DNA of 36,110 nucleotides. It comes from a virus. Taxonomy: Duplodnaviria > Heunggongvirae > Uroviricota > Caudoviricetes. Below the pieces are notes generated by a model. That model did no database searches. It was given only the letters and a program-made list of their open reading frames with translations, and was not told where the DNA came from. Location of the stretch: IMG/VR virus record IMGVR_UViG_2585427735_000020. The stretch is one strand, 5' to 3'. Made by a program: the position numbers and the translations under genes. Positions 6,270-29,064 of this stretch are shown here, in pieces. Numbering within the stretch: the first letter of the stretch is position 1; the number at the start of each line of letters is the position of its first letter.

Positions 6270-6451
6270 AAGCGGGGAGTGGTCTTCAAAATGCTCCTGT
6301 AGCATTACGTGTAGACTTATAATAGAAATTATATACAAATCAATAAGTTATTTTTGTTTTGTATTATGTGTTGATGCTTTGGTTTCATAATGTAAAAATT
6401 ATCAGAAATTCTCTGCTTGTAGTTTCGTCATATAACGAAAGGGATTGCTTA

Positions 6452-9400
6452 ATGTTTAATTCTTATACTGAATTTGTAAAGTCTTTGGTATTGGATATTC
6501 GGAAAGGTAAAGACGTTAGTTTTCTTCTGGGGTCAGCCGTGAGTTGCTCGCCGGAGGGGAATGGGGTACCGGGCGTTTCAGGGATGAATGATATTCTGCG
6601 GCAATATATGATTGATTTAGATATTTATGATGGCTTTGAAAGTAACATAATCGGTTTAAGTGAAACTGATAAATATCAAAAAAGTTTCGAATACCTTTTG
6701 AAGGTAGGTGATCAAGATGAAGTTAAAGAAATAATGGCTCTTGCAATGAATAATGCAAGGAGCGGCGACAAATGGTTAATTACTAAATCACTTGATGATT
6801 TTTCAAGGCTTATTTCAGAAACTAGCATTAAAGTAAAATGCATACTTACAACAAATTTTGATCCATTGATTGAAGAGGCATTGTTTAGAGTAAATAGAAA
6901 TTGTAATGTACATAATCTTATTGTAGATCAACCAATTGGTAGCGTTACCAGCTATTCAGGCGAATCCATTCCCGTAGTGCATTTACATGGAGTTTGGGAT
7001 GGAGATACTATGCATACTCAAACTCAGCTTTCTTCATTGAGGAAAAAAATTGAGTTGTCAATAAAAAATATATTGGATACAAGTAAATTATATGTTATTG
7101 GATATGCAGGTTGGGATGATGTTTTTCTACAGGCGTTAAGAAACATCGTCCATGAGTTTCAGCCAAGTTATAATGTTAGATGGGGTTTTTATAAAAACTC
7201 AATTGATGATGTGAGTAAAGAACATTCACGATTGATTGAAATTATTCAACCAGCGCTTGTTAATGCTCGTTTTCAAGGATATGTTGGGGTTGACTGTAAT
7301 ACATACTTTGAAGATGCTTTGGCTGAGATTAGTAAAAAAAAACAATTAAGTAAGTTTGTTGTAAAAAAAACTGGATTACAGCCGATAACAGAAAGCATAG
7401 TTATTTCGCTGAGACCCTATAACCTTTCAGTTGAGCCTGCGCATGATATAATTAGATTAGTAGAGCAAAAAAAAGCCACTGATTATTTAAATAATAACAA
7501 TCATTTTGAGCTTGTTTCTGGTTGGGGATACGGAAAAGCAGGTTTTTTATATTCTTTTATTCATGATGAATTTTATGATTTCACATGTTATTATAGTGAT
7601 GTCAATGGATTGACTGAATCTCGTGATATTGAAGTTAAAATAAAACAGGATATCGGTATCGATATTGCAACCTTCATATCTAATAATGGATTAGGAAAGC
7701 GGATTTTAATTCTTGATAACATAGCCAGACTTCCTCCATCAACTAAAGCTTTCTTTTCTGAGATTGCGAAATTATCATCAGATCTTAGTTCTGGTGTGAA
7801 AGTTATTTTTGTATCAGCGACATGTAACGGGATATGCTCTGGTATAGTGGAATTACAGCCTTTATCTTTAGATGATATAAAGGAGTATATTAAAGTTGGC
7901 ACTGATATTACTGAAATAAAAAGAGAGAAACTTGATAGGTTGTATGAAATAACAAATGGAATACCTTTAAAATTAGATAAGGTTAAAGAGTATTATGAGT
8001 TAATGTCATTTGATGAAGTCCTTGATGCAGGGAATATTGTTGTTTCGGCAGAGGGAACAAATACGGACATTCCACACTACATATCCAAGCAAATAAACGA
8101 GATTAGAAGTGATAATAGAAAACTATATTCATTACTATGCATTTTCTCTATGCTTGAATATGGGGAGAAATTGACAAATATTCGCTCTTATTATTCATCG
8201 TATGATTTTCATTTTGATGATTTCGCAAAACTAGAAAGATATGGTCTGATTTATACAATTACAAAGGATAATTATAAAATATTAAGGATATCACCAGTTG
8301 TTAGTGATTTTGTAAAGCAGGGTATGGATCCTAACCAACGGTATGAACTTGTAAAAAAATCCCTAGGACTTTGTATCGGTAGCGATTGGATGTCAGGGAA
8401 AGTGAGAGTCTCTCCTACAGTGAAGATGATGCTTGAAAGCACGGAGTTTTATCCTGGAAATGTCCATTCAGCTATTAGTTCATACTTTTCATTAATAGAT
8501 ATTAATAATTATGATCGAGAAGTCAAATCATTAATACATGTTTCTATAGGATATTGCATCTTTTTAAAGAGTGCATGTTACTATAAAGAACTCGTCGCAT
8601 TTTCTCGGATGCTTTATTCTAATATTTCTCATTTGGATATTCTTGATAAATTTAGGGCTGCGTATTTTTTGGCTACAAGTTTAAGAATGATTGATGAGGT
8701 TGAACAAAGTGTTGAATTTATTGAGCCTTTAAGTGATGAGTTCGAGGCAAAAGAGTTTTGTCAAAAGGAATATTATTTTAAAATGCTTGATAATATTATG
8801 ATGGCATGCTCTGAATATAATGATGAAAAAGCACGAAAATACGCAATAAAATTAAAAAAGATAGCTCCAAAGTCTTCTAGTTATTATATCAATGCTGAAG
8901 TTCATTTGGCTGACGAATTGTCTCATGGTAAAAGGGTTAATAAGCTTATTTCTCTCGAGAAAAAGTCCCGAGCTGCTGGGTATAACACGCTGGCTAATAA
9001 TATTAGCATTAAACTTCATTATTTGTTTTCTGGTTCATCTTTCAAATATATTGATAATGCCATAAAAAATGAAGGGGGAGTGTATACTAAGGCCAGGGCG
9101 TTACTTGTTAAGTATGAAGAGTTGGTACGTTGCGGAGAGTTTGAAAAAATTGATGCGGAGGGGGTGAGGGAATTAAAGGCCGTTTATGATTATTTGTTCT
9201 TGCAGCGATTAGATGAGCTTTTTAACAGATGTACCGATGTGTTATGGCAGCTTATGAAAGCGTATCGGGATGTTAATGGCTTATACTACTTATTTAAGCG
9301 TGGTTCTGTAATTTGGCGTGTAACCTCATCTTATGATAAAGAGTTAGAATATGCTAAGGAGTTGAATGAGCAACAGTTTGATATCAGTGGAGGAGGTGAT

Positions 9401-9487
9401 GATATGAAATATTTATCAATCAGACTGAGTTTTTTGGCACTAAAGGTGGAGCGAGATAAGTGTCTGATTGATGCTCCAACATTGTAA
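6452..9487 (+). CDS. Cargo protein, 1011 aa: N-terminal SIR2-like domain + STAND-like NTPase core + C-terminal helical repeats (SIR2-STAND/Avs5-like or DSR-like candidate defence protein)
   Basis: ATG 6452 with GAAAGGGA SD; SIR2 motifs FLLGSAVS...GVPG, TTNFD (6848..6862), HLHG (6980..6991), IGYAGWDD; then GWGYGKAG (7520..7543), ILILDN (about 7700..7720), GIPLKL (7958..7975); AT-rich, replaces tin/old between A and cos. Confidence 0.6.
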   Translation: MFNSYTEFVKSLVLDIRKGKDVSFLLGSAVSCSPEGNGVPGVSGMNDILRQYMIDLDIYDGFESNIIGLSETDKYQKSFEYLLKVGDQDEVKEIMALAMNNARSGDKWLITKSLDDFSRLISETSIKVKCILTTNFDPLIEEALFRVNRNCNVHNLIVDQPIGSVTSYSGESIPVVHLHGVWDGDTMHTQTQLSSLRKKIELSIKNILDTSKLYVIGYAGWDDVFLQALRNIVHEFQPSYNVRWGFYKNSIDDVSKEHSRLIEIIQPALVNARFQGYVGVDCNTYFEDALAEISKKKQLSKFVVKKTGLQPITESIVISLRPYNLSVEPAHDIIRLVEQKKATDYLNNNNHFELVSGWGYGKAGFLYSFIHDEFYDFTCYYSDVNGLTESRDIEVKIKQDIGIDIATFISNNGLGKRILILDNIARLPPSTKAFFSEIAKLSSDLSSGVKVIFVSATCNGICSGIVELQPLSLDDIKEYIKVGTDITEIKREKLDRLYEITNGIPLKLDKVKEYYELMSFDEVLDAGNIVVSAEGTNTDIPHYISKQINEIRSDNRKLYSLLCIFSMLEYGEKLTNIRSYYSSYDFHFDDFAKLERYGLIYTITKDNYKILRISPVVSDFVKQGMDPNQRYELVKKSLGLCIGSDWMSGKVRVSPTVKMMLESTEFYPGNVHSAISSYFSLIDINNYDREVKSLIHVSIGYCIFLKSACYYKELVAFSRMLYSNISHLDILDKFRAAYFLATSLRMIDEVEQSVEFIEPLSDEFEAKEFCQKEYYFKMLDNIMMACSEYNDEKARKYAIKLKKIAPKSSSYYINAEVHLADELSHGKRVNKLISLEKKSRAAGYNTLANNISIKLHYLFSGSSFKYIDNAIKNEGGVYTKARALLVKYEELVRCGEFEKIDAEGVRELKAVYDYLFLQRLDELFNRCTDVLWQLMKAYRDVNGLYYLFKRGSVIWRVTSSYDKELEYAKELNEQQFDISGGGDDMKYLSIRLSFLALKVERDKCLIDAPTL

Positions 9488-23797: not shown

Positions 23798-24325
23798 ATG
23801 CAGCATTTGATAAATATAACGGTGGGTAATCCAAAAACGGTTGAACAATATCAATTGACAAAGGACTTTGATGTTGTCTGGTTTTTTTCAGAAGATGGTA
23901 AGAACTGGTACGAAGAACAAAAGTATTTTGCTGATGACACGATAAAAATAGCGTACGACAAAGATAATATTATCCGCTATGTGGAAAAGGATGTGACAGC
24001 TATCAGACCAGATGGATTAAGTGTGGTTGAAGTGGCGGATATTACTGCTAACCGACGGGCGGACATTTCAGGGAACTGGATGTTTAAGGACGGCAAAGTG
24101 ATTAAACGCATTTATACGGCAGAGGAATTGCAGCAGCAGGCAGAAAACCGGAAAGCCAGACTTCTTGCAGATGCTGAATCCGTGATTTTGCCACTGGAGC
24201 GCGCTGTCAGGCTGAACATGGCAACAGATGAGGAGCGTAGCCGACTGGAAGCATGGGAACGCTACAGTGTTCTGGTCAGCCGTGTGGATCCTGCAAATCC
24301 TGAATGGCCGGAAATGCCGCAATAA
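23798..24325 (+). CDS. G: Tail fibre assembly chaperone gpG, 175 aa
   Basis: 175 aa immediately after H. Confidence 0.8.
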
Positions 24326-24360
24326 GTTGTATAAGCTCTGGTGTGAGATTACATATCTAT

Positions 24361-24410
24361 GGCACAGAGTAAAGCCTAATCTGACAGTCCGCTCTGTGCC
24401 AAGAGCGGAC
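24361..24410 (+). terminator. Two overlapping, mutually exclusive 9-bp hairpins downstream of G (possible terminator)
   Basis: GGCACAGAG(24361..24369)/CTCTGTGCC(24392..24400) and GTCCGCTCT(24387..24395)/AGAGCGGAC(24402..24410); no clear U-tract. Confidence 0.3.
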
Positions 24411-24734
24411 GTTACTACTACTCGACCTAAAGTAAAGTAATTGTACTCATTAAATAGTGGTAATTGGGTCTGGTGCTTAATCGAACGAAATCTCATGTTA
24501 GGCGAAAAAAACGTCTGAAAAATCGATTAACACATACACCTGTGTACTATGGCCGTTATTCAATTTAAAAGGAACCATTTCCGATATGATTCACTGTCCA
24601 TAATGTTTTGATTTATTAAAAAAGAGCCTTAGAGTGTGAAACCATTACGTTGAGTGGCGAACACCATTAATAAATTCTGCTTATACTTACAGCATATATT
24701 ATGTTCACGTCATATAACCATGGCAAATAAGATA

Positions 24735-24763
24735 TTGCACATCAAGCATGATTATGATAGTGA
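24735..24763 (+). promoter_or_regulatory. Candidate sigma70-like promoter for the first cargo-2 gene
   Basis: TTGCAC (24735..24740) with TATGAT/TAGTGA-like hexamers 13-18 bp downstream in an AT-rich intergenic region; weak. Confidence 0.2.
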
Positions 24764-24800
24764 TTACAAAAATGAAGAATCTTAGATAAAGGATTAGTAA

Positions 24801-25736
24801 GTGGTTACATATAATTCAATGTTGTTACCCCCCCCTAAATCTTGGGACGAATTTGAGGATATGTGCAAAAGTTCATTCCAACTGCGATGGTCCAATCCTA
24901 ATCTGAACAGACATGGACGGTCAGGGCAGCGGCAGGATGGAGTTGATGTATATGGTGATGACTCTCTTGGGCGTTTCGTTGGAATTCAGTGTAAAAATAC
25001 AGTATCAGGAATCAGTACGGCGACAATCGATGATGAATTACTCAAGGCTGAAAAATTTCGCCCAAAAATTACGGTTCTTTACATCGCTACGACAGCGCCC
25101 AGGGATGTTAGCATTCAGCGCTATGTAAGAACACTCAATGATGCCAGACAATTAAAAGGCCTGTTTCCTGTCGATGTGGTTTTCTGGGAGGATATTAGCT
25201 TTGATTTAAGCAAAGACCCAGCTGTACTCAAAATGTACTACCCGCAAATGTTCGAACGACACCAACCGACGAGGGAAGAATTTTTGCGCAAGAGAGATAT
25301 CTCAAATTTGTCGACATTGTTGAATGTTATTGATTTTCATTCAACAATAGACCATTTGCAGTGGGGCGCAAAATACATTCATTCATTAATTATTGAAGAA
25401 TACGATAATATTTTGAACATTTTAAACTCACCTGTTTTTCAACTGAATGATACAGCTTTAAAGAATGTTACAATTGATTTTGCAACGGCCTGGCGTGATC
25501 TAATTATCTTGTTTAGAAAAGCTCCATATAATTATTCAGCACCAAATGATACTTTTAGTTTTATAAATCCCGGTGACCACTGTCGAAATCAGGAGGAAAG
25601 CGATTTATACGACGAAATCACGCATAGCATGAGTAATCTCAAAGATAAAATTAGTACTTTTTGTGACTTTATAAATAATCACTACCATGAAATAAACTTA
25701 ACCGAAACGAGCGCGCAAGCCAGGAAATATTATTAA
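24801..25736 (+). CDS. Cargo protein, 311 aa: Mrr-type PD-(D/E)xK restriction-endonuclease-like N-terminal domain + uncharacterised C-terminal domain
   Basis: GTG start 7 nt after AAAGGA; FEDM...RHGRSGQRQDGVDVYGDD...GRFVGIQCKNT (nt about 24912..24998) resembles the Mrr catalytic core (D...D...QxK); AT-rich, between G and FI. Confidence 0.55.
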   Translation: MVTYNSMLLPPPKSWDEFEDMCKSSFQLRWSNPNLNRHGRSGQRQDGVDVYGDDSLGRFVGIQCKNTVSGISTATIDDELLKAEKFRPKITVLYIATTAPRDVSIQRYVRTLNDARQLKGLFPVDVVFWEDISFDLSKDPAVLKMYYPQMFERHQPTREEFLRKRDISNLSTLLNVIDFHSTIDHLQWGAKYIHSLIIEEYDNILNILNSPVFQLNDTALKNVTIDFATAWRDLIILFRKAPYNYSAPNDTFSFINPGDHCRNQEESDLYDEITHSMSNLKDKISTFCDFINNHYHEINLTETSAQARKYY

Positions 25737-26518
25737 TACTTTTTTCTTAAGGGCTGCACTCATGGCCCTTAACACCGTTAGACTGTCATATTTTGCAATC
25801 GATACGCAGTTAGGTACTTTCTTGAAGTCCGTTCCTCGCTCATAGCTGACATTCAGCTCAATTAAATCGTCCACTTCGCTCCAACAGAAGGCGTAGCTAA
25901 TCATACTGTGTATTAAAGAAAGGAGAAACGATCATGTTGAGTACAAAAAACACGAAAGACCATGATAAGGAAAATATGCGTAGAGTGACTTAGTTTATTG
26001 ATTTAAATAATATTTATGGGGGTAAGTGCTTTGAATAAAAAAACAAAAATTGAGAAGATTTAGCTAGTGCCAAAATAATTTGGACACCGCCCGTCATCAG
26101 ACCCGCTACTACACTTATCACCCCAGCCCAAAAAGTTTCAATGAAACAAGATACATATAGTAGTACAACATGGCGGAATAATTTACTCATAGGCTTCTCC
26201 TTACTGACGTAATCGTTAAGTAACGTTGAGGTAACGGATAAATGCGACTATTGGGAGAGCTGTGATGAGAATTGTAGGCATAGGAATCGAACCTATGGAT
26301 GCACTAGCTAAATTCACTCTTCACGAATTATACAGCATTGTAGTGAGTTTGTAAATACACGCCCCAAAAGTCAATCAGTCCGATCCATGAATGTTGTGTC
26401 AGTACTACTAAAGTTAAACATGCTAAAATAGGTTCCCAATATTCGTGGGTACAATCACTATCTGTGTAACTGGCGGAAGCGCTGGCATAACGACGATGCC
26501 TATTCGGGGGGCTTTAAT

Positions 26519-27385
26519 ATGGTCCGTTTTAACTTACTAGAAAATGCGTTGGATTCAGTGGAAACCGGGCTGGACTACTTTAACAAAGCGCTAGAAGGGC
26601 ATGATCGACGTGACTACAAACAGTGCCTGCTTAACCTCTTTCAGGCCGCTGAGCTATTGTTGAAGGCCGTAGTTTCGCGCAATGGGTCTGGAGCGATTTT
26701 TAATCCAGCATCGCTTCAAGAAAAATGTGTGGATCCGGCGCATCCAACCGAGTCAGAATTACACCAGTGTAAATCTGTCAACGTCAACCAGCTTTGTAAG
26801 CTGTTAAAGACATATTACCCAGCCGAATTTTCTGAATCTGCATTACAAATGATGAAAACGGTGGGTCAGTTGCGTAATAACCTTCAGCATTTTGCCCTTG
26901 AGGTTCGTCCGCAAGAACTGGCAATGCAACTGAGTGAACTGTACCAACAAATTTTTCGTCCCGCATTCGTCATAATTCAGTCAGATGAGACCGAAAATTC
27001 ATGGAACTCTGATTTACGTCAAGACATCATCGCTCTTGAGCAACAATTCCTTGATATAACTGTTAACCAGGAATACACCCTTGCACTTTGTCCCGTTTGT
27101 GAGAGTTTTTCACATTTTATCCTTTACCAAGGTGAAAGCTTTCCGGCACGGACTCACTGTATCTGTTGTGGTTTCAGCCTGAATAATCTGCAAACTTGGG
27201 ATTTTCAGGAATGTCCTGAATGTAGTGTCCCATCCGTAATTTATTTACCGGAACAAAGGGTCGGTGTCTGTCTCTGGTATAAATGTGAATACAGCAAGAT
27301 GGATGGTTTTGTTCCTATGGAGCCTTGTGAATGTGGTGCATTCCGGATGGAAGGTCATTGCAGTAACTGCGATCTTGAGGAATAG
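26519..27385 (+). CDS. Cargo protein, 288 aa: HEPN-like helical N-terminal domain (Rx4H) + C-terminal multi zinc-ribbon domain
   Basis: ATG 26519 after a G-rich SD; LRNNLQH at 26873..26890; CPVC, CICC, CPEC, Cx4C, CEC, CSNC pairs across 27089..27370. Confidence 0.55.
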   Translation: MVRFNLLENALDSVETGLDYFNKALEGHDRRDYKQCLLNLFQAAELLLKAVVSRNGSGAIFNPASLQEKCVDPAHPTESELHQCKSVNVNQLCKLLKTYYPAEFSESALQMMKTVGQLRNNLQHFALEVRPQELAMQLSELYQQIFRPAFVIIQSDETENSWNSDLRQDIIALEQQFLDITVNQEYTLALCPVCESFSHFILYQGESFPARTHCICCGFSLNNLQTWDFQECPECSVPSVIYLPEQRVGVCLWYKCEYSKMDGFVPMEPCECGAFRMEGHCSNCDLEE

Positions 27386-27747
27386 TAAAATCGTCCGATG
27401 AGAATGTACAGCAGCCTGGTCGATGATTTCTTGATGAATCGCTGAATTATCCGGTATTACTTGACAACTAAATCGCACATTTCTGTTTCTGGCAATTTGA
27501 AAGGTTTACTCTATGCCCCAGAATTCAGCACATACATAAAAACACCATTTCAGAACGCGTCTTGATCCAAAGAACGACTGTATGATAGATAGGCGTCGTC
27601 GTGAGGACAGGAATGATCTACCCCCCGTTATTCATACAGAATGCTGTTAGTAATGTCCGCAGATCGCTCAAAGCAGACTGTCAGATTTGATAGCGTTTGG
27701 GCTATGTAAGTAGCCAGTTGGAGAATGAGTGAGTGCAAATCAGGACT

Positions 27748-27789
27748 GGCGGGGGGAATGGCCGCCCTTTTTTTTTTTTTTTTTTTTTT
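27748..27789 (+). terminator. GC hairpin followed by a 22-nt poly(T) tract (terminator-like, at the cargo-2 / late-operon boundary)
   Basis: GGCGG (27748..27752), 9-nt loop, CCGCC (27762..27766), then T x22 (27768..27789). Confidence 0.45.
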
Positions 27790-27873
27790 ATCCACTGACC
27801 AGCCAGGTCAAATAGCGTCTCATGCACTGCCCAACAGAAAATAGTTGCACCCATTAACCACGGAGTTAAACGG

Positions 27874-29064
27874 ATGAGTGACTATCATCACGGCGTGCAG
27901 GTGCTGGAGATTAACGACGGCACCCGCGTCATTTCCACCGTATCCACTGCCATTGTCGGCATGGTCTGCACGGCCAGCGATGCGGATGCGGGAACCTTCC
28001 CCCTCAATAAACCTGTGCTGATTACCAATGTGCAGAGCGCAATTGCAAAGGCCGGTAAAAAAGGCACGCTGGCGGCATCGTTGCAGGCCATCGCTGACCA
28101 GTCAAAACCGGTCACCGTTGTCGTGCGCGTGGAAGACGGCACCGGCGACGACGAAGAAACGAAACTCGCGCAGACTGTTTCCAATATCATCGGCACCACC
28201 GACGAAAACGGTCAGTACACCGGACTGAAAGCCCTGCTGGCGGCGGAGTCGGTAACCGGTGTTAAACCGCGTATTCTCGGTGTGCCGGGACTGGATACCA
28301 AAGAGGTGGCTGTTGCACTGGCATCCGTCTGTCAGAAGCTGCGCGCTTTCGGGTATATCAGCGCATGGGGCTGTAAAACCATTTCCGAGGTGAAAGCCTA
28401 CCGCCAGAATTTCAGCCAGCGTGAGCTGATGGTCATCTGGCCGGATTTCCTCGCATGGGATACGGTCACCAGTACCACCGCCACCGCGTATGCCACCGCC
28501 CGTGCGCTGGGGCTGCGCGCTAAAATCGACCAGGAGCAGGGCTGGCATAAAACGCTGTCCAATGTCGGGGTGAACGGTGTTACCGGCATCAGCGCCTCTG
28601 TATTCTGGGATTTGCAGGAGTCCGGCACCGATGCTGACCTGCTTAACGAGTCAGGCGTCACAACGCTGATTCGCCGTGACGGTTTCCGATTCTGGGGTAA
28701 CCGTACCTGCTCTGATGACCCGCTGTTCCTCTTTGAAAACTACACTCGCACCGCGCAGGTGCTGGCCGACACGATGGCTGAGGCGCACATGTGGGCGGTG
28801 GACAAGCCCATCACCGCAACGCTGATTCGCGACATCGTTGACGGCATCAATGCCAAATTCCGTGAGCTGAAAACAAACGGCTATATCGTGGATGCGACCT
28901 GCTGGTTCAGCGAAGAATCCAACGATGCGGAAACCCTTAAGGCCGGAAAACTGTATATCGACTACGACTATACTCCGGTGCCTCCTCTTGAAAACCTGAC
29001 CCTGCGCCAGCGTATTACCGATAAATACCTGGCAAATCTGGTCACCTCGGTTAACAGCAATTAA
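27874..29064 (+). CDS. FI: Contractile tail sheath protein gpFI, 396 aa
   Basis: 396 aa; GGAG SD; P2 order. Confidence 0.9.
   Translation: MSDYHHGVQVLEINDGTRVISTVSTAIVGMVCTASDADAGTFPLNKPVLITNVQSAIAKAGKKGTLAASLQAIADQSKPVTVVVRVEDGTGDDEETKLAQTVSNIIGTTDENGQYTGLKALLAAESVTGVKPRILGVPGLDTKEVAVALASVCQKLRAFGYISAWGCKTISEVKAYRQNFSQRELMVIWPDFLAWDTVTSTTATAYATARALGLRAKIDQEQGWHKTLSNVGVNGVTGISASVFWDLQESGTDADLLNESGVTTLIRRDGFRFWGNRTCSDDPLFLFENYTRTAQVLADTMAEAHMWAVDKPITATLIRDIVDGINAKFRELKTNGYIVDATCWFSEESNDAETLKAGKLYIDYDYTPVPPLENLTLRQRITDKYLANLVTSVNSN

Follow-up and report, generated by a model that had tools for sequence, protein, structure and literature searches.

The question raised by this locus is what lies between the two recognised cargo genes of a P2-like (Peduovirus) prophage. 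The window, by which we mean the whole 36,110-nt stretch that was analysed, is such a prophage, and in it gene 1 ends with its stop codon at 25736 and gene 2 starts at 26519, leaving a gap of 782 bp (25737-26518). The initial annotation delimited the gap correctly, regarded it as non-coding, and proposed four possible contents for it: the promoter of gene 2, a small RNA, a leader peptide, or what remains of a third gene that was lost. Similarity to P2 relatives is confined to the flanks, in the tail-fibre assembly and tail-sheath genes, and the gap falls in a variable cargo locus between these two genes. GC content is 36-39% in the gap region, compared with about 55% in the phage backbone. The genes on either side of the gap are as follows.

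24801-25736: gene 1, 311 aa, with no Pfam or PADLOC family; its sole match is phrog_8991 (unknown function)
26519-27385, plus strand: gene 2, HEPN-type, 288 aa, with an RNNLQH motif and a Cys-rich C-terminus

Gene 2 corresponds to the PADLOC candidate PDC-S64 (3.7e-21), and its Pfam matches to HEPN and DUF3644 are weak. Our answer to the question is that the gap very probably contains a further cargo gene, a moron-like gene on the minus strand for a small membrane protein, which is frameshifted in the window. The map of the cargo locus would thereby be corrected to three genes, in place of two genes and a spacer.

Three other features of the prophage were recorded along the way. Directly 3' of gene 1, an 8-bp hairpin (TTAAGGGC...GCCCTTAA, 25748-25773) has a T-run before it and none after it, so it is a canonical terminator on neither strand. 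Upstream of the tail sheath gene, at 27751-27790, the window reads GGGGGGAATGGCCGCCC followed by approximately 20 T, a stretch with a terminator-like score; in the closest relatives the sequence there is GGGCGAATTGCCCGC ATTTTCTTTATCTGTTGTTTC, a dense cluster of differences in surroundings that are 99.6% identical. Finally, a 1042-aa ORF of low GC content (31-41%) at 6359-9487 has SIR2-type PADLOC matches (Aga_SIR2 and pAgo-associated models, down to 1e-15) and is presumably the defence cargo of the other P2 hotspot.

A predicted small gene on the minus strand

The region from approximately 25870 to 26375 is predicted to be a self-contained minus-strand unit. Its parts, in the order of transcription, are listed here.

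26327-26355, minus strand: sigma70-type promoter; -35 TTTACA (26355-26350), 17-nt spacer, -10 TATAAT (26332-26327)
26216-26317, minus strand: N-terminal fragment of the long ORF, with helix 1, (V)NLASASIGSIPMPTILITALPIVAFIRYLNV; cut off after a 2-nt deletion
26188-26201, minus strand: internal Shine-Dalgarno (SD) sequence and start codon, AGGAGAAGCCTATG
26014-26190, minus strand: intact 58-aa ORF, with helix 2, MSKLFRHVVLLYVSCFIETFWAGVISVVAGLMTGGVQIILALAK, and a variable tail
25870-26013, minus strand: 3' region of the unit, with moderate conservation (more distant copies are 55-81% identical)

We compared this unit across a set of 30 loci, comprising 19 distinct sequences; individual loci are cited below by their L numbers. 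The promoter matches the consensus at 11 of 12 positions and places the predicted transcription start near 26320. All 13 aligned copies that reach this position have a promoter-like site there (L010 is truncated), including copies whose DNA further upstream differs. In the distant homologue L037, the promoter was found in register by eye (TTTACT-17-TAGCAT). Judged from these sequence comparisons, the unit is a predicted transcription unit that is autonomous and horizontally mobile, with a promoter match at its 5' edge.

The unit's ORF specifies a predicted protein of approximately 89-101 aa with two hydrophobic helices, while the internal start would yield a 58-aa form containing helix 2 only. 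Hydropathy and an AlphaFold2 model of low confidence (pLDDT 60) both give two helices with a basic loop between them. The 58-aa ORF is hydrophobic, has the start signal AGGAG-N6-ATG, and differs among copies by an in-frame 3-nt indel. In three E. coli relatives with 96-99% DNA identity, PGAP annotates it as a hypothetical CDS (WP_231360267.1, WP_021530427.1 and WP_224714704.1), in the short form only and at 57-60 aa; none of these three entries carries a name, a function, a long in-frame form or regulatory features. For the long form there are two candidate start codons. One is a GTG at 26317, approximately 3 nt past the predicted transcription start, which is GTA in Hafnia. The other is the ATG at codon 13 (26281-26279), which lies in a hairpin stem, has a poor SD sequence, and is CTG in Buttiauxella.

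The initial annotation had found no credible long ORF in the gap. This is literally true of the window copy, but it does not extend to the 58-aa ORF on the minus strand (26190-26014) or to the long frame, which is intact in relatives. The window contains 10 occurrences of the motif AGGAG-N4-9-ATG where 4.3 are expected, and approximately 0.09 are expected per 782 bp; the gap holds two. The second of these, on the minus strand at 26201-26188, had been missed.

No terminator was found for the minus-strand unit, and its 3' region has no conserved structure (RNAalifold energy of about 0 on both strands). A second minus-strand ORF, 25904-25698 (68 aa), was considered and rejected: it belongs to no family, is not kept as an ORF in L009, and spans a recombination breakpoint near 25830. 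Several lineages have a common break in homology near 25825-25836. A 102-nt segment of the 3' region, 25836-25937, recurs at 94% identity in six further E. coli records, five of them on plasmids; in the one recurrence inspected (L004 3001-3102, an IS-rich plasmid region), an IS3 element begins approximately 30 nt from the match.

Family, selection and distribution

Copies of the unit were found in eight genera (E. coli, Serratia, Phytobacter, Mixta, Dickeya, Hafnia, Proteus and Buttiauxella), in metagenomes, and in IMG/VR prophages. The 58-aa protein itself had 14 homologues. Serratia, Phytobacter, Dickeya, Hafnia and Buttiauxella were among the first sources, and later scans added Mixta, Proteus, metagenomes and IMG/VR prophages. 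We measured selection by the Nei-Gojobori method. In frame, pN/pS was 0.21-0.45 for the upstream 43 codons and 0.23-0.53 for the core; the other two frames gave 0.54-1.40, with most values near 1. In-frame values of 0.2-0.5 indicate moderate constraint only. Nucleotide-level conservation is clear in places, and part of the signal could reflect an RNA or DNA function rather than the protein.

When 1.84 billion representative proteins were searched exhaustively with a profile, only 18 members were returned. The distant members (35-49% identity, 75-115 aa) cover both halves of the protein, begin near the codon-13 ATG, and keep an internal KE.PM motif that is nearly invariant in the family. The conserved part ends with ..LAK, past which their tails look random. 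Searches of Pfam, NCBIfam, PHROGs and PADLOC with the short and long forms gave no family, a peptide-string search of the literature gave no relevant paper, and tblastn against 50,697 deposited phage records showed the small gene to be absent from all of them. Among complete E. coli genomes, 0.5% carry the unit, with one copy per genome. The unit is also found outside phages, in plasmid, ICE and chromosomal islands.

As is typical of a moron, the gene is absent from related phages and has an atypical base composition. We envisage a low-GC, self-promoted cargo gene that would be expressed from the prophage, and whose product would insert into the inner membrane. The gene is already called hypothetical in RefSeq relatives, and small membrane-protein cargo is of a familiar kind; taken alone, this small hypothetical gene is ordinary. 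Its family is rare and uncharacterised, and no library that was searched annotates it with a function or a family. The company that the gene keeps with anti-phage genes makes it a reasonable candidate for the study of small proteins or toxins.

Neighbouring genes and linkage to the HEPN gene

Among complete E. coli genomes, all 28 with a HEPN gene of at least 99% identity carry the unit, and they are the same 28 genomes that carry it. In some of them the unit and the HEPN gene lie in a P2 prophage behind gene 1, and in the others in a non-P2 island, where an S1 peptidase gene takes the upstream place. In Serratia, Phytobacter and Mixta the unit also accompanies the HEPN gene, and the far side is occupied by different genes. 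Strict linkage is limited to the HEPN allele of 97-100% identity. Homologues of the HEPN protein (HEPN288) at 52-76% identity occur without the unit, directly after a co-directional gene; the same holds for a HEPN paralogue with 69% DNA identity, which 127 more E. coli genomes carry, nearly always on a plasmid. One such plasmid was inspected (pJJ1887-5, L041 1411-3370), and in it the paralogue directly abuts a gene for a 362-aa 'transcriptional regulator' and also lies beside SMODS and S-4TM (CBASS-like) genes. Gene 1 was seen, among the fetched loci, only alongside the small-gene unit and the HEPN gene in P2 prophages, and the genes that precede distant HEPN homologues are not related to gene 1. 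The paper of Rousset et al. 2022 on P2/P4 hotspots covers the other P2 hotspot, and contains neither 'HEC-08' nor a HEPN passage on this locus.

The unit also has other neighbours. The Dickeya copy adjoins a DUF6037 gene; the Proteus copies adjoin Septu-like PDC-M01 genes and a DNA invertase; the Hafnia and L023 copies adjoin weak HEPN-like ORFs; and the L037 copy adjoins a PD-T4-5 defence gene (3e-118; RNRLFH motif). The inspected L037 region (78-1629) also contains an 81-aa ORF built almost wholly of CxxC repeats. In L040 (2500-3230), the copy lies between a 3' remnant of icd (isocitrate dehydrogenase) and a tRNA-Pro-like 3' fragment, which was read by eye as the last approximately 55 nt with a terminator. 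The C-terminal tails of several distant family proteins likewise translate tRNA T-arm-like sequence.

Homology among copies with different flanks starts at the promoter or at most approximately 100 nt upstream of it; in L040, the 3' arm described below is the last part of the unit with homology. An obligate two-gene system with the HEPN protein was rejected, on the grounds that diverged HEPN homologues lack the unit and that the unit also stands beside PD-T4-5, Septu-like and DUF6037 genes. The varied neighbours and the unit-less HEPN homologues together point to an independent hitch-hiker of defence islands rather than an obligate partner of HEPN. In one lineage, an insertion probably brought the unit to its place upstream of the HEPN defence gene, after which the two would have spread jointly.

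A two-nucleotide deletion in the window copy

The long form of the gene is broken in the window, and the 58-aa ORF is intact.

26222-26223: 2-nt deletion; minus strand CTCAACGTGTTAC to CTCAACGTTAC, GTGT to GT

The deletion at 26222 splits the long ORF into 33 and 58 codons. It is private to the window: the long frame is open in 18 of the 18 other distinct copies, where it has 100-101 codons, and none of these interrupts or shifts the 43 codons that precede the internal ATG. None of the 28 module-carrying E. coli genomes contains an exact match to the window, and the closest eight give a 323-nt match to the 321-nt query. Of the four suggestions in the initial annotation, a lost third gene came closest: there is a gene on the opposite strand, frameshifted here and intact in relatives. 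The deletion is an example of how a conserved gene can be hidden from a reading of a single sequence.

The window copy, its long form being broken, may be non-functional. Taken to its conclusion, this would mean that the small gene is dead in the prophage and that the working content of the gap is only the promoter and 5' UTR of the HEPN gene. The deletion is unique among the 19 distinct copies and breaks a frame under selection, and the HEPN gene needs a promoter of its own, because the divergent unit separates it from gene 1. If that promoter is in the gap, it must lie at about 26356-26518, and presumably this segment holds both the promoter and the 5' UTR.

26356-26518, plus strand: from the small-gene promoter to the HEPN ATG; common only to the HEPN-linked lineage

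A candidate promoter directed toward the HEPN gene, TTGAAC-16-TAAATT, is present in 9 of 14 copies, with TCGAAC in the window. Against a dead gene, the promoter, the internal SD sequence and ATG, and the 58-aa ORF are all untouched, the internal start is conserved across the family, and the short form may function alone. Moreover, the gap differs from that of the closest relative by the deletion and one substitution, and nothing else, so any loss is very recent at most. We regard a dead gene in this prophage as possible, if somewhat unlikely, and the moron-like membrane-protein gene as the better description of the unit.

Conserved features of the predicted mRNA

The 32 nt around the internal SD sequence and ATG are 94-100% identical in all copies. 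In Buttiauxella, for example, these 32 nt are kept though the neighbouring segments are only 66-76% identical, and in L037 the region reads TAAGGAGGTGCCTATG. Because of this strong local conservation, L037 included, the internal start looks functional and two products are plausible. Two other elements lie in the predicted mRNA.

26301-26313, minus strand: 5' arm, ATTTAGCTAGTGC, at approximately +8 to +20 of the predicted mRNA
26058-26070, minus strand: 3' arm, GCACTAGCTAAAT, overlapping the last conserved codons (..ALAK)
26279-26297, minus strand: T-arm-like hairpin, CATAGG-TTCGATT-CCTATG, with the ATG 26281-26279 in its 3' strand

The arms are 13 nt long, 100% complementary, and 230 nt apart; by our own estimate, approximately 0.005 such pairs would be expected by chance in 800 nt. 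Across 15 sequences, 10 of the 13 pairs are invariant, and synonymous sites are also nearly invariant. The pairing probability of the arms was 0.74-1.0 in 10 of 14 folds. When the whole mRNA was folded with RNAalifold, the long-range helices were kept, with a covariation term of only -0.34; the z-score of the window mRNA fold was -0.23. The ATG within the hairpin aligns with the N-terminus of the distant family members, and one hairpin pair changes from A-U to G-C in L006, L040 and L037. ARAGORN found no tRNA at the unit in the window and nine loci, and Rfam 15 scans of 24300-27900 and 25800-26520 gave best E values of 0.27-4.5, far below gathering scores.

For the moron-like gene, the invariant initiation region and the 13-bp complement between the 5' and 3' arms would point to post-transcriptional control of a dose-sensitive, possibly toxic membrane protein. 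A more specific proposal, which overlaps with this one and does not exclude it, is a Hok-like type I toxin: the 58-aa helix-2 peptide would be toxic, pairing between its extreme 5' end and the last part of the ORF would keep the mRNA inactive, possibly together with masking of the SD sequence, and an RNA or the longer isoform would serve as antidote. Such a module would stabilise the defence cargo that carries it. Several observations favour this: a small hydrophobic ORF whose SD sequence and start codon are very strong and do not vary; the perfect complement, with its high pairing probability and low chance expectation; pyrimidine-rich, anti-SD-like stretches in the leader (CUCUCC) and in the 3' region; and a single copy per genome, always in a mobile or defence context. 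On the other hand, the long helix shows three single mismatches (L006, L023 and L037) and one G-U pair without any compensatory change, and the 3'-region anti-SD is lineage-specific. No antisense RNA was found, in the sense of a conserved antisense promoter, an sRNA structure or an Rfam match, and selection at the protein level acts on the in-frame helix 1, which sets the unit apart from known type I toxins. On balance, the Hok-like proposal is doubtful.

Three candidate elements of such a system were examined individually and rejected. An anti-SD in the 3' region, UUCUCCUU, which would pair with the internal SD sequence, is present only in the window and the L001 lineage. An antisense promoter, TTGAGA-18-AATAAT, is found in 9 of 14 aligned copies and is absent, by eye, from L037 and L040. 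An antisense AATAAT at the start codon is either not conserved or has no -35.

The two starts also allow a distinctly unlikely extension, a dual-start addiction or effector module, in which helix 2 alone would be toxic and the form with helix 1 would be either inhibitory or targeted differently. Base pairing between the extreme 5' end and the end of the ORF, beside a mimic of a tRNA T-arm, would lock the mRNA, and the module would recur divergently beside HEPN-type and other anti-phage genes. If true, such a module could stabilise defence cargo or act as a membrane effector.

It is very improbable that the conserved block is instead an RNA or DNA element, either a remnant of a tRNA-derived attachment site or an element bounded by inverted repeats, in which the ORF is incidental. 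This would fit the T-arm-like hairpin with its one compensatory pair, the 13-bp inverted repeats, the position of the L040 block between the icd remnant and the tRNA-Pro-like fragment, the T-arm-like tails of distant members, and the DNA invertase genes next to Proteus-type copies. It conflicts with in-frame purifying selection in both halves of the ORF, where the off-frames are mostly neutral, with protein-level conservation at 35-49% identity, with the lack of any tRNA by ARAGORN or Rfam, and with homology that runs beyond the left repeat. An invertible segment or MITE was rejected, since all copies have one orientation and there is a single copy per genome.

The nineteen-codon ORF

The feature that the initial annotation had singled out in the gap was an ORF of 19 codons on the plus strand, antisense to the 3' region of the unit.

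25934-25993, plus strand: mini-ORF

As described there, the ATG at 25934 is preceded by AAAGGAGAAACGATC and opens MLSTKNTKDHDKENMRRVT, which ends at 25993, and its SD-ATG motif is unusual locally, at the expectation of approximately 0.09 per 782 bp given above. Comparison with the other copies does not bear out a function. The mini-ORF is frameshifted in L002 (B7A) and L013 (Proteus), and its ATG is missing in L009, L010 and L023. In most lineages, that is, outside that of the window and L001, the SD sequence is AAAGGGG. The distant lineage L011 has an ORF of the same length, MLSTKSTKDQNKGNMYEMI, in which 8 of the 19 residues differ. From these alignments, the mini-ORF is probably a chance ORF opposite the 3' region of a gene, and not a gene itself.

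A leader peptide is disfavoured by this lack of conservation and by the distance of 525 nt to gene 2, with an opposite-strand gene between; a small RNA is disfavoured by the lack of conserved structure on either strand and of any Rfam match better than E = 1.2. A non-coding spacer in which the 19-codon ORF serves as a leader peptide, a micropeptide or a portion of an sRNA is therefore hardly tenable, even though the SD-ATG match is real and locally unexpected and the ORF length is kept in L011.

Comparison with known systems

The unit resembles hok/sok and other type I loci in its short hydrophobic ORF, strong SD sequence, upstream reading frame and mobile carriage, and in a predicted mRNA of approximately 400 nt in which the extreme 5' end could pair with a segment far downstream. 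The 58-aa ORF, with one long hydrophobic helix, is also of the size of a type I toxin, and its longer in-frame form is likewise under selection. Unlike hok/sok, the upstream frame is the same frame as the short ORF and itself encodes a conserved helix, and it is the end of the ORF, not the 3' end of the mRNA, that carries the downstream arm. The peptide is not similar to Hok, Ldr, TisB, Zor or Ibs, and the locus has no Rfam match.

A small two-helix membrane protein with two possible starts, whose products could differ in activity, also recalls pinholin S21 and the dual-start class II holins, and the helix-2-only form would be analogous to S21 lacking TMD1. The starts in those holins are 1-3 codons apart, compared with 31-43 in the unit, and there is no sequence similarity. 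A class II dual-start holin was rejected on this spacing, on the absence of an adjacent lysis gene or endolysin, and on a position outside the P2 lysis cassette.

Phage morons include small inner-membrane proteins, such as HK97 gp15 and the T4 Imm-type superinfection exclusion proteins. The unit differs from these in having no sequence or profile similarity to them and no terminator that we could find, and in its orientation opposing the phage late genes. What it shares with morons is the arrangement as a whole: a low-GC, dispensable small gene with a predicted promoter of its own, set among the tail genes of a temperate phage and coding for a predicted two-helix membrane protein of approximately 80-100 aa.
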